Shown in pieces: positions 18,239 to 32,762 of a DNA stretch of 64,000 nt. The notes under the pieces are model-generated. The model did not search any database and was not told the DNA's origin. It was given only the letters and a program-made list of their open reading frames with translations. Source of the stretch: an uncultured Acidobacteriota bacterium (lineage in GTDB: Bacteria > Acidobacteriota > Polarisedimenticolia > J045); the NCBI GenBank assembly GCA_963702425.1, contig CAVPCQ010000025.1:1-64000 (forward strand), given 5' to 3'. Numbering within the stretch: the stretch's first letter is position 1; each line of letters begins with the position of its first letter. Position numbers and translations under genes: made by a program.

Positions 18239-20973
18239 CTAATGCCGCGCGGCGGCCAGCTCGTCGATCGTCTCGAGCAGGTGCCGGGCATCGATCGGCT
18301 TGGTGACATAGCCGTCCATGCCCGCCGCCAGGCAGCGCTCCCGATCGCCGCTCATCGCGTGCGCCGTCATGGCGACGACCGGGAGGTGACGCTGCGTGCC
18401 GCGTTCGCGAGCGCGGATTTCCGCCGCGGCCTGCAGCCCGTCCATCACGGGCATCTGCACGTCCATCAGCACGAGGTCGGGCTCCTCGGCCTGGAGCCTG
18501 GCGAGCGCTTCCCGGCCGTCTCCCGCGAGCGCCACGACGTGGCCCGCGGCTTCGAGCAGGCGCGCCGCGAGTCGCTGGTTGACCGCGTTGTCCTCAACGA
18601 GAAGGATCTTCAACGGCCGCCGTGCCGTTGGCTTCAACGGACGGGCCACGACCGGCCGAGGCGGCGCCGTAGGCGGCTCCCCGGCGACGAGGCGGAGGAG
18701 GAGCGCCAGGAGTTCCGGGCCGATGACCGGCTTGGTCACCGCGTCGTCGACCTGGTCGCGGCCCGGAAGTTCGCCTGCCGCCGCCATCTGCCGGGTGGTC
18801 AGCATCACCACCACGCGGCCCTTTGGGGGAGCGCCCGCGGCGCGCAGGGCCCCGAAGTCGGCGGGTGTCCCGACCCGGGCGTCCGCGAGCACGACGCGGA
18901 CGGGCCGGCCATCTCCGCCGCTTGCTCGAGTGCCTCGAGCGCGGCCGCGACGTTCGACGCCGCGGTCGCGCGAAGGCCCCAGCGCTCGAGCATCGATGCC
19001 GCCTTGAGCCTGGCCGCCCCATTGCCGTCGACGACCATGGCGGTCGTGCCCGCCAATCGGTCAGCGCCGGCGGCCGCGCCGCCCTCGTTGCCGAGCAGCG
19101 GCGTCGCCTCGCCAAGTCGCACCGTGAAGCGGAAGACGCTTCCCTGGCCGGGAGTGCTTTCCACCCAGATTCGGCCGCCCATCAGCCCGATGAGGCTGGA
19201 CGCGATCGCGAGGCCGAGTCCCGTGCCGCCGTAGTCGCGGGTCGTCGAGCCGTCCGCCTGCTCGAAGGCGCGGAAGATCCTCTCCTGCTTGTCCGGGTCG
19301 ATTCCCGGGCCCGTGTCCCGCACGGCGGTGCGCAGCAGCACACCGCGGTCGGTCCGGCGTGCGGACACGGTGACCACCACCTCGCCCGCGCGGGTGAACT
19401 TGATCGCGTTGCCGACCAGGTTGAAGAGGACCTGGCGGAACCGACCCGGGTCACCGACGAGCCGTCCCGGCACGCTCGGGCGGACGTCGCAGACGAGTTC
19501 GAGCCGCCTCTCGTGCGCGCTGACTCCCAGCACGGCGAGAGCCTGCGCGATCTCCGCTCGCACATCGAAGGGACGAGCGTCGAGGCGGACCCGACGCGCC
19601 TCGATCTTCGAGAAGTCCAGAATGTCGTTGATGACCTCGAGCAGCGTCTGGCTCGAGGTGCGAACGATCTCGAGGCAGTCGCGCTGCTCGACCGTCAGAT
19701 CCGTCGTGAGCACGATGTCGGCCATGCCCATGATGCCGTTCATCGGAGTCCGGATCTCGTGACTCATGTTGGCGAGGAACTGGCTCTTCGCGCGGCTTGC
19801 CGCCTCCGCGGCCTCGTTGGCGCTCTGCAGTTCGAGTGTGCGCTCGCAGACCCGCCGCTCCAGATCGTCCTTCGCCTCCGCGAGTTCGGCGAGCGTCGCT
19901 TTCAGGAACGCGTCGCTCTCCTGAAGTTCGCGCTGCGAGCGCTCGAGGGCGGCGAGGGTATCGTTGATCGCGATGGCGAGCGCGGCGATCTCATCGCGGC
20001 CGCGGACGGGGACGCGCCCGGAAAGGTCCCGACGCCAGCCGACATCCCGCACCGAGAGCACCAGCGCAGTCAGGCGCACCAGCACGCTGCGATCGAGCAC
20101 CAGCAGAATCGCCAGACAGACGAGCACTCCGAGAGCAACCACGAAGAGCGCCAGACCGCGCAGGAGCGTGACGCTCCGCGCGTACGCCTCGCGGGGCAGC
20201 CAGGCCCGCAGAAACAGCGCCGGCTCGCCGGCAAGATCGTCGAACCGGGCATAGCCGGCGAGTTCCGACTCCGACAGCCGCTGGACCCGGCTGCTCCCGG
20301 GGGTCGGAAGCGCTTCCGCCACCCGCTCGAGCCCGGGCGGCAGCGGCCGGGCCGAGGCCGGGATCAGCGTCAGATCGAGGTGCGACGCGTGGCGCAGGCG
20401 GGTGGCCACGCGGGCGTCCACCGCGCGGCTGACCAGCAGCGTGCCGCGGCGCGGTCCCTCCCGCTTGCTGGTGAGGATCGGCAGCGCGGAGACCAAGAAC
20501 GGACCCTCGGGAAGGACGAGGACGCCGCTGGCGGCCTCCGGGAGGGAGGCCCGGCGGGAGATCTCGCAGAACGCGGATCGTGCCGATTCGACCTGCGCCC
20601 CCTGTGGCCGGTCAGGCAGCGAGACCGTCTTTCCGTAGAGGAGCCGGCACTCCGGGTCGAGGAAGAGGATCAGGTCCACTCGGGACTCGCGCAGCACCGT
20701 GTCGTAGAGGTTCACCTCGATGAAACGCGGGTTGAGATCGAGGGCGAACTGGTAGGCATCATCCCAGATCGCCCAATAGCGGTTCGTCTCCTGCAATCGC
20801 TCGATTTCCGTCGTGAGCGCCTGCCGGGCACGGGCGAGATCCCCCGCTGCGAGCAGCTCCTCGACGTGCCTCGAGTTGCGATCGAACGTGACATAGGCCG
20901 CGGTGAGCGCGAGGGTACCCAGGCCGAGCGTCGCGGTCCCGACGATCAACAACGTCTTGACACGCAGGTTCAA
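18239..20973 (-). CDS. CHASE4-HAMP hybrid histidine kinase with two REC domains; apparent frameshift near 18890
   Basis: ORF 18805..20973 has [13 protein letters not shown] (CHASE4), GRDEI (HAMP), [11 protein letters not shown] and GGTGLGL. ORF 18239..18892 has [10 protein letters not shown] and LVLMDVQMP. Confidence 0.9.
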
Positions 20974-21267
20974 TCGCGCCCTCCGCGCGAGCGCGCATTA
21001 TCCGCGCTCCGCCGCTTCAGCGTCCGGGGTCTACGAAAGCGTTATCGGACGTGCGCCCGGAGAACTTGAGTGGCCGGCCTCCTCCCGTGCTGCCGTCGCC
21101 GCGGCCATGCACCAGGGACCCGGATGCCCGCGAAAAAGCGGCCGAACGCACGGCAGCCGGCGACGCGCTCCCGGCGAGTCGATCGTTCAAGTCGCTTCCG
21201 GACCGTCCGATGAGTCCCGACGGGCGAACGCCGCTCCTGCCGAGCGCTGTGCCTTGCGTCGCCACGA

Positions 21268-23187
21268 ATGCGAAGGGGGCTCCAGGTGGCGTTATCGCCG
21301 CGCCGGCCGTTACGCAGCGCCTCTGCCAGGTACACGCTCCGCGGGGCAGCCTTCGGAGTGTGCTTCCCGGTCTGCGCGACGCTGCTTCACGCCTGGACTC
21401 ACACCGGCGGGCTCTCGCCGGAAGCGCTCACCGCCGCGCTCCGCGATCCCCTGCTCTGGATCATCGACTCGGCGCCGCTCTGGCTCGGCCTGTTCGCGTG
21501 GGTCGCCGGCACTCGGCAGGACCGGCTCCGGCGGGTCGTGGAGCGGCAGGATCAAGTGATTGCCGAGCGGACCGCCGCGCTGAAGCAGGCGCTTCGCGCC
21601 GCCGAGGCGGCCGCGAAAGCGAAGAGCGACTTCCTCGCCAACATGAGCCACGAGATCCGCACGCCGATGAACGCCGTCATCGGGCTCTCGTCACTGCTGC
21701 GCGACACGTCGCTGAGTCCCGAGCAGCGGGACCTCGTCGAGACGATCATCAGCAGCGGCGACGTCCTGATCAGCCTGATCAACGACATTCTCGACATTTC
21801 GAAGATCGAAGCCGGAAGAGTGGAGCTGGAACTCCGGCCGTTCGACCTGCGGGACGTCGTCGAGCAGAGCGTCGCGGTGCTCGGCGCGCAGGCGGCGGCG
21901 AAGAGCCTCGACCTGTCCTGGTGCGTCGACGAAGACGTGCCGCACCGCCTGCTCGGCGACTCGACGCGACTCCGCCAAGTCATCATCAATCTCGTCGGCA
22001 ACGGCGTGAAGTTCACCGAGAGGGGCGGGATCGGCGTCGAGGTCTCGGCAGCGGGCGGGTCGCCTCGCGATCCGTTGCGCGGCGACAGCATCGTGATTTC
22101 CGTCACGGTCCGGGACAGCGGAATCGGCATCGCGCCGGACCGCGTCGACCGGCTCTTCAAGCCGTTCAGCCAGGTCGATTCGTCCACCACGAGGAATCAC
22201 GGCGGCACCGGCCTCGGGTTGTTCATCAGCCGGCGACTCGTCGAGATGATGGGCGGGACTATCGGTGTCGAGAGCGTGCCAGGGCGCGGCTCGACCTTCC
22301 GGTTCTCGATCCGCGTGCGCACTCTGCCCGAGGGGACTGCTGCTGAGCGCGACGCCGAGACGCCGCCAGCCACTCGCGGGATGTTGCTCGTCGCAATCGC
22401 GAATCCGATCTGCCAGCGGCTTGTCGCGAGCGAGGGGCGTGCGCTGGGGCTCGTGTCCGTCGTCGTCGACCCAGGCCGCAGCACGGAACTGATCGAGCTT
22501 GCGCGCGATGCGGACATCGTGCTCGTGGACGTGGACGATGTCCAGCGTGACTCGCGCGCGGATGCCCTCCGCGCCGCGTTCACGGGCGGGGTGCGCCGGC
22601 GCCGCGCTGTTTTTCTGACCCTCCCGGGAGCGAGCTACCCCTGCGCGAGCGACCCCCACTGTGCGGGAGTCGTCACGAAGCCGGTACGGCGGGCAGAACT
22701 GAGACGAGTCCTGTGCTGCGCTCTCGAAGGAGGCGACCGACCGTGTCTCTTCGTCGATTCGCGGCACGACGGACGACCCGCGGAGCCCCCGACGCGCGCG
22801 CTCCGCATCCTGCTCGCCGAAGACAATCCGGTGAACCAGAAGGTCGCGCTGCGCCTGCTCGGACGGATCGGCCAGCAGGCTGATGTCGCCGGCGATGGCC
22901 AGGAAGCCCTCGACGCGCTGGAGCGATCGGAGTACGAAGTCGTGCTGATGGACCTCCAGATGCCCAAGCTCGATGGGCTCGAGGTGATCCGGCGCCTGCG
23001 TGCCGGCACCGGGCCGTCGCGACGGGCACTCGTGATCGCACTCACGGCGGAGGCGTTGGAGGGGGATCGGGAGCGGTGTCTCGCGGCCGGCGCCGACGGT
23101 TATCTCAGCAAGCCCGTGCGCCCCGAAGAGTTCTCAGCGGCCATCGCGCGCTGCGCCGAGTCGCTCGCGGTGACGGAAGCGACGTAG
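21268..23187 (+). CDS. Hybrid histidine kinase with a short membrane sensor, a degenerate REC and an intact REC
   Basis: [22 protein letters not shown] module, [40 protein letters not shown]. Start codon uncertain. Confidence 0.9.
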
Positions 23188-23494
23188 AGCGGCCGGGGCC
23201 GATGGGCAGGCAGCGGATCGGTGTCGCTGCGGTTCACGGTGACGCGGTCGCCATCCTCGGAGTTCCTCTGTCCACGCCGAGATCGCGGGTCCGGTCAGCC
23301 CCGCCACGACTCCGATCGGGAACGGGAGCGCGGCGCTCGGTGCTCTGGCCGAGGATCTCGGCGTCCCGAGACGCCGCTGCCGAGACCGTTGCCGCAGCGA
23401 GCAGCGGCACGTACGATCCGGCCTTGGCGGATGGCTGCGGGGCAGGCCGGAGCCTTGGGGTGGGTGCCATGAATGGTGAAGGGGGAGGAGCCCC

Positions 23495-23800
23495 ATGAGT
23501 CCCGAAACGCGATTCGAGTTCGACAAGGCCGCTCTCGCGGCGATCTGCTCGCGGTTTGGCGTGATCGAGTTGTCAGTTTTCGGCTCTGCCGCGCGCGGCG
23601 AGCTTCGAGCGGATAGCGATATCGACCTGCTCGTGGACTTCGAAGAGAGTCAGCGGGTGACCCTCTTCACGCTGTTCGACCTCCGGTCGGAGCTATCGAC
23701 TCTGCTCGGTCGCACCGTGGACGTGGTTCCGAAACGCGGGCTCAAGCCCCTGATTCGGGAGCATGTGCTGAGCGAGGCTCGGGTCCTCTATGCGGCCTGA
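23495..23800 (+). CDS. mntA: Minimal nucleotidyltransferase (MNT) antitoxin
   Basis: GSAARGELRADSDID = GS-X10-DXD motif; 101 aa; GGAGGAG RBS. Confidence 0.9.
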   Translation: MSPETRFEFDKAALAAICSRFGVIELSVFGSAARGELRADSDIDLLVDFEESQRVTLFTLFDLRSELSTLLGRTVDVVPKRGLKPLIREHVLSEARVLYAA

Positions 23801-24137
23801 TCAGCTCTATCTCGCCGACATGCTCGAGGCGGCCGACAACATCGGCGTGCACCTCGGCCAGCGGCCCCGCGAGGCTTTCCTCGGCGACGTGACGGCGCGG
23901 GCGGCGGTGCTGCACGAGTTGACGGTCATCGGGGAAGCGGCCTCACGCATTTCCGCTGAACTTCGCTTGCGGCACACGGACGTTGCTTGGGCGAAGATCG
24001 TGGCATTCAGTAACTTCGTGGTTCACGAGTACTTCGGACTCGACTGGTCCATTGTCTGGGAAACCGCTACGTCGCTCGTTCCCGCGCTGCGCGAGCAGAT
24101 CCAGGATCTCGTGTTGGCCGAGTTCCCCCCGGAATAG
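23790..24137 (+). CDS. hepT: HEPN (DUF86/HepT-like) toxin with an altered RNase motif
   Basis: YLADMLEA..VIGEAA..W..IVAFSNFVVHEYFGLD..IVW; overlaps the MNT gene. Confidence 0.88.
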   Translation: MRPDQLYLADMLEAADNIGVHLGQRPREAFLGDVTARAAVLHELTVIGEAASRISAELRLRHTDVAWAKIVAFSNFVVHEYFGLDWSIVWETATSLVPALREQIQDLVLAEFPPE

Positions 24138-24212
24138 GCTGCCGGTCCGATTCGCCGCGCGGGCCGAAGCTCCGAGGCGCCCGGCGCCCTTGCCCGCGCC
24201 CGGCGGGAATTT

Positions 24213-24275
24213 GGGCCGCCACGGAGGGCGGCCCCTGCGGTGCGCGGGCGGGCCGCCACGGAGGGCGGCCCCTAC
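24213..24275 (-). repeat. Two GTAG-family REP-like palindromes in direct orientation
   Basis: Minus strand GTAGGGGCCGCCCTCCGTGGCGGCCC (24250-24275) and GCAGGGGCCGCCCTCCGTGGCGGCCC (24213-24238): a GTAG tetranucleotide followed by a GC hairpin. Confidence 0.75.
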
Positions 24276-25519
24276 ATGCCGTACTTCTCGATGATCCCCT
24301 TCTTGTCGAGCCCGAGGATCCCGTACTTGGCCCCGATCTTCTTGAACGCCAGGAGCGCCTGCTCCAACTGCGGGATCTCGTGGTCGGCCGACATCTGGGT
24401 CCGGATCCGGGCCTGCCCCGCCGGGACGACCGGGAAGAAGAAGCCGATCACGTAGATCCCCTCGTAGAACAGGTCGCGCGCGATGTCCTGGCTCAGCTTG
24501 GCGTTGAACAGCATGACCGGGACGATCGGGCTGTCGCCGTCCTTGATGACCAGGCCGATCTCCCTGAGCCCCTTCCTCCAGAAGTGCTGGTTGCGCTCGA
24601 GCTTGTCGCGGCGCTCGGTGCTCTGGCCGAGGATCTCCAGCACCTTGAGCGCGCCGTAGGCGATCGGCGGCGCCACCGCGTTGCTGAAGAGGTACGGCCG
24701 CGCCTTCTGCCGGCACAGCTCGACGATCTCGCGGCGGCCCGAGACGCAGCCACCGGACGCCCCGCCGAGTCCCTTGCCCAGCGTGGTCGTGATGATGTCG
24801 ATCTTCCCCAGCACGCCGAAGTGCTCGTGCGTGCCGCGGCCGGTCTTCCCGATGAAGCCCGAGGCGTGGGAGTCGTCCAGGAAGACGAGCGCGCCGTACT
24901 GCTCGGCCAGCGCGCAGATCCTGTCCATCGGCGCCAGGTCGCCGTCCATCGAGAAGACGCCGTCGGTGATGATCACCTTGACCCGCTTGTCGGCGTGCTC
25001 CTGGAGCTTGTCCTCCAGGTGGGCCATGTCGCCGTGCTTGTAGGTGTCGTGCATCGCCTTGGCCAGGCGGATCCCGTCGATGATCGAGGCGTGGACCAGC
25101 CGGTCGCTGATCATCACGTCCTCGGGGCCCAGGATCGCCTCGAAGACGCCGGCGTTGGCGTCCAGGCAGCTCGGGAAGAGGATCGTGTCCTCGGTCCCGA
25201 GGAACTCGGTCAGCTTATGCTCGAGCGTGCGGTGGACGTCCTGCGTCCCGCAGATGAAGCGGACCGAGGACATCCCGTAGCCGCGCTCGTCCAGCCCGCG
25301 GTGGGCGGCGGCGACGACCTCGGGGTGCGACGACAGGCCAAGATAGTTGTTGGAGCAGAGGTTGATCACCTCGCGCGGCGGGGCGTCGGTCGGGAACTCG
25401 ACCGAGATGTGCGAGGACTGCGGCGAGTGGATGTACCGCTCCTGCTTGAACAATCCCTTCTCCTGCAGGTCGGCCAGCGTCGCCTGCCAGGTTTCCTTGA
25501 CGGCAGCCGGGTAAGCCAT
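24272..25519 (-). CDS. Kbl-like PLP-dependent alpha-oxoamine synthase (glycine C-acetyltransferase family), operon-linked to a carrier protein
   Basis: [53 protein letters not shown] (PLP Lys), RPYLFSN, ARIRTQMSA. Confidence 0.92.
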   Translation of the reverse strand: MAYPAAVKETWQATLADLQEKGLFKQERYIHSPQSSHISVEFPTDAPPREVINLCSNNYLGLSSHPEVVAAAHRGLDERGYGMSSVRFICGTQDVHRTLEHKLTEFLGTEDTILFPSCLDANAGVFEAILGPEDVMISDRLVHASIIDGIRLAKAMHDTYKHGDMAHLEDKLQEHADKRVKVIITDGVFSMDGDLAPMDRICALAEQYGALVFLDDSHASGFIGKTGRGTHEHFGVLGKIDIITTTLGKGLGGASGGCVSGRREIVELCRQKARPYLFSNAVAPPIAYGALKVLEILGQSTERRDKLERNQHFWRKGLREIGLVIKDGDSPIVPVMLFNAKLSQDIARDLFYEGIYVIGFFFPVVPAGQARIRTQMSADHEIPQLEQALLAFKKIGAKYGILGLDKKGIIEKYGM

Positions 25520-25521
25520 GG

Positions 25522-25767
25522 CTACGCCCCCTTCTGGAACTTCTGGACCAGCGCGATGATCGAGGTGACGGAGTCGAACGCCTCGGGCGAGGCCTCCTCG
25601 TCGGGGATGCTGACCGCGTACTTCTTCTCGAGGAACCGCTTGAGGCTGACCATGCTGAAGCTGTCCACGATGCCCGACGAGATCAGCTTCGTGTTTTCGT
25701 CGAGCGGCATGTCGTCGTCGTCTTCCAGGTATTCCTTGCGGATGTAGTCCAGGATCATTTCTTTCAC
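25522..25767 (-). CDS. Acyl/peptidyl carrier protein
   Basis: 81 aa, acidic; LISSGIVDSFSMVSL phosphopantetheine-Ser motif (DltC-like carrier style); GGAGG RBS before GTG. Confidence 0.9.
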   Translation of the reverse strand: MKEMILDYIRKEYLEDDDDMPLDENTKLISSGIVDSFSMVSLKRFLEKKYAVSIPDEEASPEAFDSVTSIIALVQKFQKGA

Positions 25768-25780
25768 GTGGGCCTCCGTC

Positions 25781-27485
25781 TCAGTCGTTTTCGAGCGTGC
25801 TGGTGTCGCCGATCTCCTCGCCCCACTCCTTCGCCTTCAGCAGCCGGCGCATGATCTTGCCGCTGCGCGTCTTCGGCAGCTTGTCGACGAATTCGATCTC
25901 CTGCGGCATCGCCAGGGGCGAGAGCTTCTTGCGGATGAAGTTCATGATGTCCAGTTCCAGGTCATCGTCGGGCACGACGCCGGGGCGCAGCGCGACGAAG
26001 GCCTTGACCACCTCCATGTTCATCAGGTCAGGCTTGCCGATCGCGGCCGACTCGGCGACCGCCGGGTGCTCCAGCAGCGCGCTCTCGATCTCGAACGGCC
26101 CGACCAGGTGGCCGCCGGTGTTGATCACGTCGTCGTCGCGCCCGGTGAACCAGACGTAGCCGTCGGCGTCGAGGCTCCCGCGGTCGCCGCAGATGTACCA
26201 GCCGCCCAGGAACTTGCCGTAGTAGGTGGCGGAGTTGTTCCAATAGTGGCGCATCATGCTGGGCCAGGGCGGCCGCACCGCGATCATCCCGACGCGGCCG
26301 GGCTCGGTGATCGGCTCGCCGGTGTCGGGATCGACGATCGTCGGCCTCCAGGGCGGGGAAGGCGCGGCCCATGCTGCCCGGCTTGACCGGCATCCCGGGC
26401 AGGTTCGTGACCACGATGCAGCCGGTTTCGGTCTGCCAGAAGGTGTCGTGGAAGTCGAGCTTGAACGCTTCGCGGCCCCAGTGCACCGCTTCCGCGTTGA
26501 GCGGCTCGCCGACGCTGGCGAGGTGGCGCAGCGAGGAGAGGTCGCAGGCCCGGACCGGCTCGAGGCCGTCCTTCATCAGCATCCGGATTGCGGTCGGGGC
26601 GGTGTACCAGACCGTGATCCTGTGCTTCTCGATCGTCTTGTACCAGCGCTCGCTGGAGAACCCCGCGTCCAGCACGACCTGCGTCGCGCCCATCGACCAG
26701 GGGCCGATGATTCCGTAGCTCGTCCCGGTGACCCAGCCCGGATCGGCCGTGCACCAGTAGATGTCGTCGTCCTTGACGTCGAGGACCATCTGCGTGGTCA
26801 GGTACTGCGCCACGACGCTGCCGTGGACGTGGAGCGCCCCCTTCGGCTTGCCGGTCGTGCCGCTGGTGTAGTGCAGCACGCTCGGCGTCTCGGCGAAGGT
26901 CTTCGTCGCCGTGAAGCGCTCGAGGCGGTGGTCCTCCATCCGGAACGCGACCTCGCCCTCCTGCAGCGGCTTGCCGTCGGCGTCGTGGTCGATCACGATC
27001 ACGACCTTCAGGTCGGGCAGCTTCTCGCGGATCTTGCGGACCTTGGCCAGGTGCTTGCGCTGCGTGATCACGGCGCTCGCGCGGCTGTCCTCCATCCGAG
27101 TCAGGAGCGCGTCGGTGCCGAAGGCCGAGAACAGCGGCTCGACCACGGCGCCGGCCTTGAGGATTCCGAGGAACGAGATGTACAGCTCCGGCACCCGGTC
27201 GAGGAAGAGGCAGACGCGGTCCCGCGGCCGGACGCCCTGCTTGGCGAGGTAGTCGGCCCAGCCGTTGGAGAGGACGGAGAGGTCGCGGAAGCTGAACCGG
27301 CGCACCTCCCCGGCGTGGTTCTCATGCAAGAGCGCGGTCTTCTCGCCACGGCCCTGCTCGACGATCCGGTCGGTGCAGAGCCAGCCGATATTGACGGGGC
27401 CGTGCTCCGCGAGCCCGAGCTCGCGTCGTGCAGCATCCCAGGACGTCTTGGCGCGCAGCGATTCGTAGTCCGAGGCCGCGATCAA
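25781..27485 (-). CDS. acsA: Acetate-CoA ligase-like adenylate-forming enzyme (AcsA type); apparent frameshift near 26345
   Basis: ORFs 26028..27686 and 25781..26287 join: YTSGTTGKPKG, WCTADPGWVTGTSYG, SVGEPLN, DTFWQTETG, GRDDDVIN, LPKTRSGKIMRR. Probable TTG start at 27485 after GGAGGAGG. Confidence 0.88.
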
Positions 27486-27725
27486 ACTCCCTCCTCCCGT
27501 GCGGTAGAGCACGACCGGCACCCGGCCGCCTGGTGGGGGAGGGGACGGGCTCGCACAGTTTAACATCCCGGTAAGCCCCCCGGAAGCCGCCCCGGGCGGG
27601 CGAAACCGGCGCGAAATCCGGTCTTGCCCCGCCGCCGGAGGGTGGTCGGCGGGGCGCGCCGGGGCGACAATGGCCCGCCCTCCCATCCCCCCGGGACACT
27701 CGTCCTCGCGAGGACGCCTTCAGCG

Positions 27726-28916
27726 ATGTTCGGACACCTCAAGGACCACCTGACGACCGAGCTGTCCGCGATCCGGAGCTCCGGGCTCTGGAAGAGCGAG
27801 CGGGTCATCACCAGCCCGCAGGGGCCGGCGATCACGCTCGACAGTGGCCAGTCGGTCCTGAATTTCTGCTCCAACAACTACCTCGGGCTGTCGGGCGCGC
27901 CGTGGCTGATCGAGGCCGCCCAGGCGGTGCTCAAGGACCGCGGCTATGGCATGTCCTCCGTCCGCTTCATCTGCGGCACACAGGACATCCACCGCGAGCT
28001 GGAGCAGCGCATCGCGGAATTCGTCGGGCAGGACGACGCGATCCTCTACGCCGCGGCGTTCGACGCCAACGGCGGCGTCTTCGAGCCGCTGCTCGGCGAG
28101 GACGACGCGATCCTCGCCGACCGGCTCAACCACGCCTCGATCATCGACGGCGTCCGGCTCTGCAAGGCGCGGCGCTTCGTCTACAAGCACAACGACATGG
28201 ACGAGCTGGAGGCCAAGCTGCAGCAGGCCCGCTGGTGCCGCTTCCGGCTGATCGCCACCGACGGCGTCTTCTCGATGGACGGCGACCTCGCGCCGCTGCC
28301 CGACATCTGCGCGCTGGCCGAGCGCTACGACGCGCTGGTCATGGTCGACGACTGCCACGCCACCGGCTTCATCGGCAAGCACGGCCGCGGGACGGCCGAG
28401 CACTGGGGCGTCACGGGGCGGGTCGACATCACGACCGGGACGTTCGGCAAGGCGCTGGGCGGCGGTCAGGGCGGGTTCACCGCATCGCACCGCGAGGTCG
28501 TCGACCTGCTGCGCCAGCGCTCGCGGCCGTACCTGTTCTCCAACACGCTCGTCCCGGAGGTGGTCGGCGGCTCGCTCGCGGTGCTCAAGCGGCTGTCCGA
28601 GACGACCGCGCTGCGCGACAAGCTGGAGGCGAACACGCGCTACTTCCGCGAGCAGATCGCCGAGCTGGGCTTCGAGATCAAGCCGGGCTGGACGCCGATC
28701 ATCCCCGTCATGCTCCACGACGCGGTGCTGGCGCAGAAGGTCGCGGCCGACCTGCTCGACGAGGGGATCTACGTGATCGGCTTCTTCTACCCGGTGGTCG
28801 CAATGGGCGAGGCGCGGATCCGCGTGCAGATCTCCGCCGCGCACGAGCGCGAACACCTGGACCGCTGCCTCGCGGGCTTCGAGAAGGTGGGGCGGCGACA
28901 CGGAGTGATATCGTAG
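27726..28916 (+). CDS. kbl: 2-amino-3-ketobutyrate CoA ligase (glycine C-acetyltransferase)
   Basis: [74 protein letters not shown]; start MFGHL at 27726. Confidence 0.95.
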
Positions 28917-28942
28917 GGCGCGATGGACGCGGGAGATCACGC

Positions 28943-29620
28943 GTGAGCCTGCTCGCCTCGGCCTGGGCCGCCTGCCGGGCGCTGAGCGCCCGGGTGCGCG
29001 GCGGTGCGGACGCCGTCGGAACGGCCGGAGCAGCGCCGAACCGGGGCGACGCGGAGTCCGCCTCCGACGACCGCGTGCCGACCGACTTCGACGAGATCGA
29101 GCGCCTGCTCCTCGCCTCCGAAAAACACGCCCCGGCCGACCGCCGCGTCGCGGACGGGATGGTCTGGCTGGCCGGGCAGCGCGCCGAGGCCGGCCAGCTC
29201 GAGGAGGCCTACCGCCTGCTCCACCGCGCGATCGCGATCCGCGAGCGCGCCGGACGCCAGGGGGGGCGCGGGATCACCCGCACGATGGAGGCGCTGTCGA
29301 GCGTCGCGGCCCAGATGAGACGCTACGACGAGGCGCTCGAGATGCGGCGCCGGACGCTGCGCAACCGGGAGAAGATCCACGGCCCAAACCACCCCGAGGT
29401 CGCCTACGGGCTGGCCCAGCTGTCGAACCTCCTGTGGGAGATGGGACAGACCCGTGCCGCGTGGGAGTGCCACCGCGGCGCGATCGACATGGTGCGCGAG
29501 GCCCCGGTCGGCCAGATCCCGGCGGAGCTGCGCGAGGCGTTGCGGGACTTCCCGGGCCGCAACGGCGACGGGCGCCCGCACCCGCCGCGGATGCCGCGCT
29601 CCGAGATCGGCCTCAACTGA
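28943..29620 (+). CDS. TPR-repeat protein (kinesin-light-chain-like repeats)
   Basis: 3' part of ORF 27902..29620 from GTG 28943: EEAYRLLHRAIAIRE, YDEALEMRRRTLRNREKIHGPNHPEVAYGL. Confidence 0.75.
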   Translation: MSLLASAWAACRALSARVRGGADAVGTAGAAPNRGDAESASDDRVPTDFDEIERLLLASEKHAPADRRVADGMVWLAGQRAEAGQLEEAYRLLHRAIAIRERAGRQGGRGITRTMEALSSVAAQMRRYDEALEMRRRTLRNREKIHGPNHPEVAYGLAQLSNLLWEMGQTRAAWECHRGAIDMVREAPVGQIPAELREALRDFPGRNGDGRPHPPRMPRSEIGLN

Positions 29621-29776
29621 CGGCAGGCGCAGCCCCGGCGTAGTCTCGTGCCCAGGAGCGCCCCCCCCGAGCGACCGGCGAAGCCTGGGCCGCTAGCCTG
29701 CCGGCGCGGTTCGGCGTACCTTCCGGCGGTCTCGAGCGCCCGCCGGGGGAGCGCCGAAGACGGAAGCGCCCGGATC

Positions 29777-31421
29777 GTGACCATTCCGCTACATGCCAGG
29801 CTCTCGAAGCGAAACACCCTCATCGCCCTGGCGTGGGTGGCGAGCGGGAGTGTCCTGCTCGCCGGAGCGGCCCCCCCGAGACGGTCGTCGTCGGCGACCG
29901 GACCGTGATCGTCGAGAAGGAACTCCCTTCCGCCGCGGCGTCCGCGCTGTCCGTGAACGATGCCCTCCGCGAGGCGAGCCGCGCGCGCCCGCGCGTCGCC
30001 CCGCGCCTTGCCGACTGGCTCGAGCGGGCCGCGCCCGGCGAGCGGACCGTGATCCTGCGCGTCGATCCGGAGGCCGGACTGGATGCTCGTCGAGGTCGAT
30101 CGCGCGGAGGCCGCGGAACTTGCGCGTGTCGCCGGCCCCGACACCCGGCTCGAGCTGCTCGCCGAGCGCGAGCCGGCGCTGCGCTGGGTGCGTCCGACGC
30201 TGGGTATTCCGCGCGCCTGGAAGATCGCCGGCCACGGCGAAGGGGTGAGGGTCGGCCTAGTCGAGATCGGCGGGCTCGGCCGCACGACCGACACGGTGAT
30301 TCCGTTCCTGCGCTACGGCGGCTGCGCCGACACGTGGCACGCCACGATGGTCGGCGGCGTGATCGCCCTGCGCCCGGCTGCGACGTGGAACCGCTGGTTA
30401 CGAAGGGATCGCGTCGTCCGTACGACTGCTCGATGCCGGCGCCTGCTCGGCCCGTGACCACGACCTATTCGCCGCGATCGACTGGGCGCTGGCGCAGGGT
30501 GCGACGGTGCTGAACCTCTCGTGGGGTGCGCCGACCGGCGGCGCCTACGACGCGGCCGCCACCCTCGTCGACGAGATCGCCTGGAGCCGGGGCACGCTGA
30601 TCGTCGCGGCGGCAGGGAACGACAGCGCGTCGGTCTGGTCGCCGGCGCTCGCGCACAGCGCACTGGCGGTCGGAGCGACCGACGATCGCGACACCGAAAC
30701 GGTGCGCGACGACGCGCTCGCGGGCTTCTCGTCCTGGATCGATCCGCGGAGCGGGAGCGCGAAACCAGAGCTGCTGGCGCCCGGGGAGGACGTGGTCACG
30801 GCGGCTCCCGGGTTCCAGGCGATGGCCCGCGCGACCGGCACCTCGGTCGCCGCGCCCGCGGTGACCGCCACGGCGGCGCTGCTGCTCGGCGCGCGTCCCG
30901 ACCTCGCGGGCCACGGTCCGGCCGTTCGGGCGCTGCTGCTCGCCTCGGCGGGGCTCCAGCCCGGCGCTGGCGATGCCGATCGCAGCCCCGGAGATCGCGC
31001 GGGCGAGGGCTACCCGCGAGCCGAGATCGCGGCGGAGAGCGCGAGCGCCGGGCGCTATGGCTGGCAGGAACTGAGGTCCGGCGATGCCGGCACGAAGCGC
31101 ACGCTGGCGACCCTGCGCCTGCGGCGCGGCCAGAAGGTCCGGGCCGCGATCGCGTGGGACCAGCCGGGGAGGTACCACGCCGCCGGCCTCGGTGCGATGG
31201 CCGACGTGGATCTCGCCCTGCTGGCGCCGAACGGCGCCGTCGTCGCCGAGAGCCGCGCGGCGGCAGGCGCCTACGAAGCGCTCACGGCCCGGGCGCCGGT
31301 CGGCGGCTACTACCGGCTGGTGGCGACCGTCTTCCGCCACGACACCCTGGATCGCGAGGGGCAGCTCCCCGGGCGCACGCCGCTCGGCTGGGCCTGGGCG
31401 ATCATCCCCTCGGTCCGGTAA
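29777..31421 (+). CDS. Secreted S8-family peptidase with a divergent triad; several apparent frameshifts
   Basis: Pieces in successive frames: signal-like LIALAWVASGSVLLAG, GEGVRVGLVE, WHATMVGGVI, VLNLSWG, VAAAGND, KPELLAPG, TGTSVAAP, and a C-terminal PPC-like ADVDLAL. Confidence 0.7.
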
Positions 31422-31493
31422 CCGGCTGCCCGGCCCCCTGCGGCGCCGGGGTGGGTTACCTTACGCACCGGGACGTTCCGGTGCGGAGAGCCG

Positions 31494-32762
31494 ATGGACC
31501 GACACGATAGCCCGAGCCGCCTGCGGGTCGAGGACTTCGAGCGCCTGCTCGACGTCACGCGCGCGCTCGCCCACGAGCTGGATCTCGACGCCCTCCTGAC
31601 CCACATCGTCGACGCGGCGCGGGCGCTGCTGGATGCCGAGCGCGGCAGCGTCTTCCTCTACGACGCGAAGACCGGCGAGCTGTACACGAAGGTCGCCACC
31701 GGCAGCGGCCAGATCCGCGTCCCCCCGGGCCGCGGGATCGTTGGCGAGTGCGCCCAGACGCGGGCCGTGATCAACGTGCCCGACTGCTACGCTGACTCGC
31801 GCTTCGACCGCAGCTTCGACCAGCGCACCGGCTTCCGCACGCGCTGCCTCCTGACGGTGCCGCTCGTCGGCCACGACGAGGCGCTGGTCGGCGTGATGCA
31901 GGTCCTGAACCGGCGGGGCGGGTCGTTCGGCCAGCAGGACCAGCGCGTCGCGACCGCGCTCGCCGCGCAGTGCGCCGTCGCGCTCCAGCGCAGCCACATG
32001 CTGGAGGAACTGCTCGAGAAGCAGAAGATGGAGCGCGAGCTGCAGGTCGCGCGCGAGATCCAGCTGCGGTTCCTGCCGCAGAAGATGCCCGACCTGCCGC
32101 CCTACGAGTTCGCGGGGTGGATGCGCCCCGCCGACGAGACCGGCGGCGACGTCTTCGACACGATCCCGGCCGGCGACCGGCGGGTGGCGCTGCTGCTGGG
32201 CGACGCCACCGGCCACGGGATCGGTCCGGCGCTGAGCGTGACGCAGGTGCGGTCGATGCTGCGCATCGCGCTCCGCCTCGGCGCCAGCCTCGAGGCATCC
32301 TTCAAGAACATCAACGACCAGCTCGCGGCCGATCTTTCGAGCAACCGCTTCGTGACCGCCTTCCTGGGCGTACTCGACGCGGACGCGCACGAGATGCGCT
32401 TCCACAGCGCCGGCCAGTCCCCGGTCCTGCACCTGGTCGCGGCGACCGGCGAAATACGCGAGCTGCCGACGACCGCGCTGCCGCTCGGGATGTTCGCCGG
32501 GTTCCCGGTGCCCGACCCGCCCCGGATCGAGCTGGCGCCGGGCGACATCGTCGCCCTGATCACCGACGGCGTCTTCGAGCGCGAGGCGGAGGGCGGGGAG
32601 CTGTTCGGCACCGAGCGCGTATCGGCGCTGCTGCTCGAGCACCGCGCGGCCCCGCTGGAGGAGATCATCGGTGTCGTCGTGGCCGCCGCAGATGCTTTCG
32701 GTGGGACCAGTCCGCAGGCCGACGACATGACGCTGCTGCTGGTCCGCCGCGGCGAGGGCTGA
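31494..32762 (+). CDS. GAF + SpoIIE/PP2C serine phosphatase (RsbU-like)
   Basis: GAF domain (ERGSVFL..FDQRTGFRTRCLLTVPL..GVMQVLN); PP2C motifs TGGDVFD, GDATGHG, ITDGVFE, ADDMTLL. Confidence 0.93.
   Translation: MDRHDSPSRLRVEDFERLLDVTRALAHELDLDALLTHIVDAARALLDAERGSVFLYDAKTGELYTKVATGSGQIRVPPGRGIVGECAQTRAVINVPDCYADSRFDRSFDQRTGFRTRCLLTVPLVGHDEALVGVMQVLNRRGGSFGQQDQRVATALAAQCAVALQRSHMLEELLEKQKMERELQVAREIQLRFLPQKMPDLPPYEFAGWMRPADETGGDVFDTIPAGDRRVALLLGDATGHGIGPALSVTQVRSMLRIALRLGASLEASFKNINDQLAADLSSNRFVTAFLGVLDADAHEMRFHSAGQSPVLHLVAATGEIRELPTTALPLGMFAGFPVPDPPRIELAPGDIVALITDGVFEREAEGGELFGTERVSALLLEHRAAPLEEIIGVVVAAADAFGGTSPQADDMTLLLVRRGEG

Follow-up and report, generated by a model that had tools for sequence, protein, structure and literature searches.

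Three adjacent genes on the reverse strand of a 64,000-nucleotide stretch of DNA (hereafter the window), taken from contig CAVPCQ010000025.1 of the assembly GCA_963702425.1 of an uncultured Acidobacteriota bacterium (Polarisedimenticolia; J045), encode an acetate--coenzyme A (CoA) ligase-like enzyme, a small acyl carrier protein (ACP) plus a paralogue of the glycine C-acetyltransferase Kbl, for which we use the name KblL. Comparative sequence analysis makes it probable that this trio is a copy of a widespread module in which the carrier holds an acetyl group, linking acetate, glycine and 2-amino-3-ketobutyrate/threonine. Our best reading, by analogy, is that the module would be a C2 (acetyl) analogue of the logic of AasR-AcpR-Spt, the system of Caulobacter and other Rhodobacteria in which, according to the published account, a specialised ligase loads a small ACP and the resulting acyl-ACP is used by Spt (PMC9386255). 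An original prediction, made from the sequence of the window alone, had already noticed the three genes, separated by gaps of 13 and 2 base pairs (bp) and divergent from a second, full kbl gene, and open reading frame (ORF) calls confirmed these coordinates and gaps. The locus is organised as follows:

24272..25519, reverse strand: KblL, ACP-linked glycine C-acetyltransferase paralogue, 415 amino acids, with a conserved 12-amino-acid C-terminal tail GLDKKGIIEKYGM
25522..25767, reverse strand: dedicated carrier protein, 81 amino acids; Ser36, within GIVDSFSM, presumably bears the phosphopantetheine
25781..26341, reverse strand: C-terminal part of the ligase (AMP-binding_C; PF13193, 1.9e-24; NF003313, 265 bits), in another frame than the N-terminal part
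26342..26344, reverse strand: frameshift site, with one extra base compared with all relatives (sequence alignment)
26343..27569, reverse strand: N-terminal part of the ligase (AMP-binding; PF00501, 1.4e-73; NF003313, 462 bits)
27570..27725, no strand: intergenic region separating the divergent ligase and canonical kbl genes (ORF coordinates)
27726..28916, forward strand: canonical kbl, glycine C-acetyltransferase, 396 amino acids (TIGR01822, 636 bits against a cut-off of 493)

The original prediction would have been refuted had the trio been confined to this genome; its order is instead kept across many phyla, mostly together with a dedicated phosphopantetheinyl transferase (PPTase). Orthologues of the carrier (at least 61% identity) occurred in 9 of the 23 genomes of the family, counting the genome of the window (G000, 91% complete; other G numbers designate relatives and L numbers the loci compared), and the ligase, ACP and KblL genes followed one another in the same order in all eight fetched relatives having the carrier. 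Relatives of the carrier numbered at least 8000 among metagenome proteins, the best 120 of them being 70-98% identical, and 552 carrier stretches were confirmed in species-representative genomes. The best 80 of these 552 stretches, all from other species and all in metagenome-assembled genomes, are the basis of the cassette counts given below. They belong to Acidobacteriota (Vicinamibacterales, Thermoanaerobaculia, Holophagales, Terriglobales, Aminicenantes) and to other groups including Calditrichota, Zixibacteria, Ignavibacteria, Chlorobiaceae, Fibrobacter, Latescibacterota, Gemmatimonadota, Eisenbacteria, Planctomycetota and Polyangia. The ligase lay directly upstream of the carrier in 70 loci (74 had room for a gene there), KblL directly downstream in 74 (room in 76), and both flanked it in 64. 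In 59 loci the same strand also encoded, upstream, an AcpS-type PPTase (~125 amino acids, PF01648), and all four genes were found together in 50. Judged from this gene order, the recurrence of the trio is more than chance, and the trio is a conserved gene set.

Apart from the trio, AcpS was the one conserved neighbour revealed by clustering of all ORFs from the 80 loci, where many clusters were antisense shadow ORFs; the families that came after it (M1 peptidase, SpoIIE, Aldedh, aconitase/Iso_dh and acetyl-CoA hydrolase-GNAT) were present in 11 loci at most. Some loci (L060, L061, L073-L075, L080 and L097) keep AcpS, ACP and KblL together and have the ligase elsewhere. G000 contains two ACPS-family genes at other places in the genome, so that a PPTase is available; the linked AcpS genes share 42-44% identity with one of these two. 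Annotation pipelines label the three genes 'acetate--CoA ligase', 'acyl carrier protein' or 'glycine C-acetyltransferase', so that annotations give no sign of a module. A protein atlas search returned only clusters that were unnamed or named as ACP, and we found no published description of the module in a search of openly accessible articles.

The ligase is of the Acs type. Its best family was NF003313 (AcsA-type acetate--CoA ligase), with 462 and 265 bits for its two halves against a cut-off of 729. Seven one-frame ACP-linked orthologues scored from 721.6 to 781 bits, straddling that cut-off, and unlinked AcsA-type genes (L138, L139 and L140) reached 892-935 bits. Matches over the cut-off were found in 12 of 151 sampled genomes of the phylum, a tally that takes in the unpublished genomes G062 and G086, on which no other result depends, and the 13 best NF003313 loci comprised seven ACP-linked ligases, the three unlinked AcsA-type genes and three further loci (L142, L144 and L145). 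The nearest solved structure was 9g79, an AcsA-type acetyl-CoA synthetase (6.9e-159), followed by other Acs including that of S. enterica. We mapped the S. enterica Acs numbering onto 83 one-frame cassette ligases (three rows being second copies of contigs) and found valine, threonine, valine and tryptophan at the equivalents of Val310, Thr311, Val386 and Trp414 in all 83. The first three are what we take to be acetate-pocket positions. The fourth, Trp414 (Trp416 in M. thermautotrophicus), sets the acyl range towards small acids and is replaced by glycine in medium-chain enzymes (PMC10455477). Lys609 was kept in 82 of the 83 sequences. With its acetate pocket invariant, the ligase appears, as originally proposed, to act on a short-chain substrate. 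G000 has a separate housekeeping Acs (991 bits).

By sequence, KblL is a Kbl and not a serine palmitoyltransferase (SPT), BioF or CqsA. Both KblL and the product of the canonical kbl matched Aminotran_1_2 in Pfam, and in NCBIfam both exceeded the cut-offs of NF005394 (562 and 615 bits, respectively, against 460) and TIGR01822 (554 and 636 against 493). The structures nearest to KblL were true Kbl enzymes (7bxp, 5.7e-137; 7v58; 1fc4, 2.9e-130; 3tqx), with other alpha-oxoamine synthases (AOS) far behind (Thermus AONS/KBL, 1e-90; SPT, 6e-65; ALAS; AONS). A kinship with CqsA/LqsA, which had been evoked for a possible signal molecule, found no support, KblL scoring 185 bits with NF005526 against a cut-off of 428. 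The motifs by which KblL had been distinguished from the canonical copy (FPSCLDANAG, DRLVHAS and DDSHA, together with a C-terminal extension) are present in its sequence, and the clade of its own for which a phylogenetic test had been proposed was recovered. In a tree of 83 rows (66 ACP-linked sequences, 14 free Kbl including that of E. coli, and three outgroup AOS of ~40% identity), calculated by a quick search with SH-aLRT support and no bootstraps, the 66 KblL rows formed one side of a branch with an SH-aLRT of 100, apart from the 14 free Kbl. The canonical kbl of the window grouped with the free Kbl, E. coli among them.

The positions N50, H136, S185, D210, H213, T241, K244, S274 and R368 (E. 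coli numbering), whose roles as catalytic residues we assume from the 1FC4 literature, were kept in all 66 ACP-linked and all 14 free sequences. KblL nevertheless carries fixed differences from free Kbl: position 135 is valine in 65 of the 66 rows and asparagine in all 14 free Kbl (N135V), and E160H, L264C, S268A, L298R, F309W and D334N are also fixed. To these is added the conserved basic tail GLDKKGIIEKYG, missing in free Kbl. The existence of a separate housekeeping Acs and a canonical Kbl in the same genome, together with the distinct KblL clade, its fixed changes and its tail, argues for a specialisation of the trio. A further trace of KblL was observed elsewhere in G000 (C1:18208-18474; L003, about 1500-1770), where an 89-residue remnant is 87% identical to the KblL C-terminus, special tail included. 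As it stands alone in the middle of its contig and without the N-terminal part, it looks like the relic of a second cassette copy.

The carrier is highly conserved, with 34 invariant columns out of 81 in an alignment of 16 homologues. Its best NCBIfam matches were dedicated carriers (OlsHI ACP, 52 bits; AmcB; AsbD; DltC), all below their cut-offs. We rejected an OlsH-type ornithine-lipid carrier on this basis (52 bits against 130); the OlsH system is a planctomycete GH3-like pathway. The AlphaFold2 model of the carrier (pLDDT 88) had DSSP helices at residues 2-13, 36-50 and 67-79, with Ser36 starting the second one, and Foldseek retrieved PigG (TM 0.81-0.86), PltL, the carrier of the glycine:[carrier protein] ligase of B. 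japonicum and DltC, with TM values of 0.7-0.86 overall. In its predicted fold, then, the carrier resembles the type loaded by free-standing adenylating enzymes. Modelling of the interface between the carrier and its enzyme, suggested in the original prediction, gave for a KblL dimer with the carrier scores of 0.43, 0.40 and 0.23 (median 0.40), against 0.00 for the best of three controls, on a scale where 58 of 80 solved complexes and 2 of 110 mismatches came up to the mark, values of at most 0.60 being seen for only 7 of the 80 and for both mismatches. The runs agreed in at least 94% of contacts and the partners had pLDDT values of at least 81. The score falls in the 'weak support' class and we do not count it as evidence.

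What had been described as a single ligase gene is not one in the assembly, where a previously unnoticed extra base splits the frame: the window reads GGAGGCCGACG against GGAGGCGACG in G004, so that the ligase runs ...FPALEA, then one extra base, then TIVDPDTGEP... The alignment places the extra base at 26343/26344 and shows it missing in G004, G002 and G015; both halves share one frame in all eight relatives, and the C-terminal part shares 98% identity with the single-frame ligase of G004. Public sequencing runs contained at most 0.37 of the window words in any run. One bridging contig in each of the runs X4, X5 and X6, from three studies, lacked the base at 26343, these contigs coming from relatives ~94-95% identical, and X1 does not cover the site. 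Alignment with 9.4 kb of syntenic G004 sequence showed five further one-base indels in the window, at ~29657, 29872, 30084, 30398 and 30697. Since the base is missing in the relatives and in the contigs of three studies, and five more indels lie nearby, we think that the frameshift reflects an error of assembly rather than a real pseudogene, the former being moderately favoured. The five indels break a gene at 29004-31421 (forward strand) whose G004 counterpart is one 804-amino-acid ORF with a TPR-like part and, after it, a Peptidase_S8 part, which suggests either local assembly errors or a decaying gene. The true start of the ligase is likewise uncertain, as the ATG at 27569 is not conserved and the G004 translation has no methionine there.

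A connection of the module with threonine is suggested by the distribution of L-threonine 3-dehydrogenase (Tdh). As originally stated, the window contains no tdh, E. coli Tdh yielding zero tblastn matches in it, and no Zn-type Tdh (TIGR00692) exceeded the cut-off in G000 or in five cassette-positive relatives. G000 has 14 Epimerase-family genes, of which 12 were scanned by NCBIfam (the two longest, of 496 and 572 amino acids, being left out). One gene, at C39:11987-13111 (L184/L189), matched in PDB solely L-threonine 3-dehydrogenases of the short-chain dehydrogenase/reductase (SDR) type, with E-values from 2.2e-57 to 3e-42. This gene received no NCBIfam name at E<=1e-40 and was identified by the PDB search alone. 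Orthologues of it occurred in 21 of the 22 other genomes of the family, and in G014, G031 and G038 the SDR-Tdh homologue adjoins a Kbl-like gene on the same contig.

Canonical Kbl and cassette are both present in G000, G002, G004, G015 and G017, in a tally among relatives that takes in the unpublished G034, on which no other result depends. Four other relatives, G009 (100% complete), G018, G013 and G020, have the cassette and SDR-Tdh (with one internal TAG in the case of G020), and a canonical Kbl was not found in them at E<=1e-60. Since KblL is the sole Kbl found alongside Tdh in these four relatives, a catabolic role is favoured there, and the gene content suggests KblL as the obvious consumer of the Tdh product where no other Kbl was found. 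Of the 80 loci, 7 carried a Zn-type Tdh-like gene just upstream of the cassette, as did one more locus of the phylum sample. In the six regions examined, no tdh adjoined the canonical kbl of relatives.

These observations lead us to propose the following scheme. The carrier would be phosphopantetheinylated; the ligase would interconvert acetate plus ATP and acetyl-S-carrier; and KblL would interconvert acetyl-S-carrier plus glycine and 2-amino-3-ketobutyrate plus holo-carrier. The outcome would be a private, protein-bound pool of C2 thioester alongside the Tdh/Kbl route that depends on CoA. Chemically, the module could run either way; we lean slightly towards threonine breakdown, in which threonine would be converted via 2-amino-3-ketobutyrate into glycine and acetyl-carrier, and the latter into acetate. 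A bolder version of this scheme, which we regard as unlikely, is an energy-conserving threonine/glycine-acetate shunt combining Tdh as the source of 2-amino-3-ketobutyrate, KblL cleaving this product with the holo-carrier thiol as acceptor into glycine and acetyl-S-carrier, and the ligase running in reverse (acetyl-S-carrier + AMP + pyrophosphate giving acetate + ATP). If true, a thioester bound to a protein and separate from the pool of CoA would serve for substrate-level phosphorylation in many uncultured bacteria from sediments and soils.

Several observations weigh against an acetyl-carrying module. Both the acetylation of the carrier by the ligase and the use of acetyl-carrier by KblL are deduced from sequence. 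The carrier itself stays under the Pfam gathering threshold of PP-binding (17.2 bits against 20.8, E=0.006). KblL exceeds the equivalog cut-offs of CoA-dependent enzymes and, therefore, may simply use acetyl-CoA. In the ligase, 82 of the 83 cassette sequences keep the equivalent of Arg584, which contacts the 3'-phosphate of CoA, so that the enzyme may still bind CoA. The position of Arg526, which we take to be needed for the thioester-forming step with CoA, is leucine in all 83 cassette ligases and arginine in 16 of 17 classical Acs; as the three unlinked AcsA-type ligases of Acidobacteriota (L138-L140) also have leucine there, this change is no mark of ACP use. A real frameshift would leave G000 with a defective module. 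The genus of the window has no linked AcpS, and two of its members, G001 (84% complete) and G003 (81%), have Tdh and lack both kbl and the cassette. Moreover, 16 of the 80 loci lack one partner beside the carrier; the cassette-like ligases of L142, L144 and L145 have no carrier in the short flank examined; and in L050 and L052-L054, four of those 16 loci, the ligase-ACP pair has no KblL downstream and is divergent from a different AOS, ~40% identical to Kbl.

Near the L050/L052-L054 variant, found in some Acidobacteriota, we noticed an acetyl-CoA hydrolase/transferase-GNAT fusion, a divergent aldehyde dehydrogenase, Iso_dh and aconitase. A test of CoA contacts in the ligase through the loop of S. 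enterica Acs Arg191 did not discriminate, as this loop could not be aligned and differs in a bona fide AcsA-type structure too.

Among the alternatives, the one that fares best is a biosynthetic function, in which acetate would be loaded onto the carrier and condensed with glycine into 2-amino-3-ketobutyrate, leading to aminoacetone, pyrazines, another small aminoketone or threonine. The evidence from gene order, acetate pocket and KblL clade serves it equally well; the ligase is of an ATP-consuming, acetate-activating type; and 73 of the 80 cassette loci have no adjoining tdh. The dedicated-carrier logic is also that of AasR-AcpR-Spt, itself biosynthetic (PMC9386255). However, genes for tailoring, export or reduction were not conserved beside the module in the 80 loci, the sole Kbl found in four Tdh-bearing relatives being KblL suggests a catabolic Kbl job, and the low NF005526 score sets KblL apart from the CqsA/LqsA type. 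We consider this function unlikely, and the CoA-independent route to an aminoketone or signal put forward in the original prediction is not favoured over the reverse direction, given the SDR-Tdh of the genome and those same four relatives.

A second alternative is that both enzymes are ordinary CoA-dependent paralogues, namely a ligase making acetyl-CoA and a second glycine C-acetyltransferase, and that the small protein has another role or an unrelated partner. That both enzymes lie at or near the curated cut-offs of CoA-dependent families, the retention of the Arg584 equivalent and the weak complex prediction are all in line with this possibility. It nonetheless looks quite improbable in view of the position of the carrier between both enzymes in 64 of the 80 loci, with a private AcpS in 50 of them, the extreme conservation of the carrier, the separate clade and fixed changes of KblL, and the coexistence of a housekeeping Acs and a canonical Kbl in the genome.

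A long-chain or lipid pathway (sphingoid base, aminolipid) or a BioF-like biotin step, with the trio as a homologue of AasR-AcpR-Spt or BioW/BioF, is very improbable: although the combination of ligase, dedicated ACP and AOS is the AasR-AcpR-Spt logic (PMC9386255), and G000 has no separate BioF-like AOS, the acetate-pocket tryptophan is invariant, KblL falls far short of the SPT models (NF047600, 306 bits against 640; NF047599, 254 against 500; NF047603, 223 against 670) and short of BioF (TIGR00858, 356 against 426), solved SPTs match at 6e-65 compared with 1e-130 and better for Kbl, and no reductase or N-acyltransferase neighbour is conserved in the 80 loci. The biotin reading was rejected, as G000 (91% complete) had no bioB match and no bioA over the cut-off.

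The acetyl-carrier module that we favour can be compared with several known systems. It would share with AasR-AcpR-Spt an ANL ligase, a small ACP, an AOS gene beside the ACP and, with ACP loading presumed here, an acyl pool apart from CoA; in contrast with AasR-AcpR-Spt, the ligase is of the Acs family with an acetate pocket and not a fatty-acyl-AMP ligase. The AOS here is a Kbl and not an SPT, ceramide genes are not found nearby, and a dedicated AcpS is usually linked. The Tdh-Kbl pathway, for which we used E. coli kbl-tdh and the Kbl structures 1fc4 and 7bxp as references, resembles the module in that KblL keeps the Kbl catalytic residues and passes the family cut-offs, Tdh occurs in the genome and tdh adjoins some loci. 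It differs in that KblL forms a separate clade, carries N135V beside the catalytic histidine and a 12-amino-acid tail, and its gene always adjoins a carrier gene. PigI-PigG, PltF-PltL, DltA-DltC and the glycine:[carrier protein] ligase (4h2u) have a similar carrier fold, and here, too, the ligase gene lies directly upstream; these systems, however, deliver amino acids or aryl acids to pathways of secondary metabolism or of the cell wall, whereas the cargo here would be acetyl and its consumer a pyridoxal phosphate enzyme of primary metabolism. Finally, Syntrophus aciditrophicus is reported to run an AMP-forming Acs in reverse to obtain ATP from acetyl-CoA (PMC4992975, PMC13404658). It offers a precedent for ATP formation from an acetyl thioester, AMP and pyrophosphate, as a catabolic module would need, with the difference that, as described there, it uses acetyl-CoA and no carrier protein.

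If the carrier does hold acetyl, the AasR-AcpR-Spt logic would have in this module its first C2 counterpart, including a Kbl working on a protein thioester. The module would possibly constitute a new acetate/glycine/threonine node in hundreds of uncultured bacteria, among them Acidobacteriota, Zixibacteria, Ignavibacteria and Calditrichota. Four small soluble proteins suffice to test the question directly.

On its other side, the ligase faces the canonical kbl, which starts ~156 bp from the ligase start on the opposite strand; among the relatives compared, this back-to-back arrangement is kept only in G004, G002 and G015. A scan of the 27570..27725 region found neither a sigma-70-like promoter nor a terminator-like site. 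Rfam gave zero matches at E<=0.1 in positions 20000-32000 of the window, intergenic region included, and only two tRNAs in ten other cassette loci. We rejected control of the cassette by a riboswitch or other RNA on the basis of these Rfam results.

The window has a G+C content of ~70%, and the genes flanking the trio (Pfam) do not look related to it in function: an MNT/HepT pair (23495-24137), two histidine kinases and the TPR/S8-peptidase gene. The pair, located on the forward strand directly downstream of KblL, consists of an MNT-type nucleotidyltransferase and a HepT-like RNase (toxin-antitoxin pair); synteny with G004 begins only at 24213, so that the pair is not common to G004 at this place. 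The ~63 bases after the KblL stop (24213-24275) match three overlapping places in G004 (L040, 7170-7343), which indicates a short tandem repeat there with a unit of ~37 bases.

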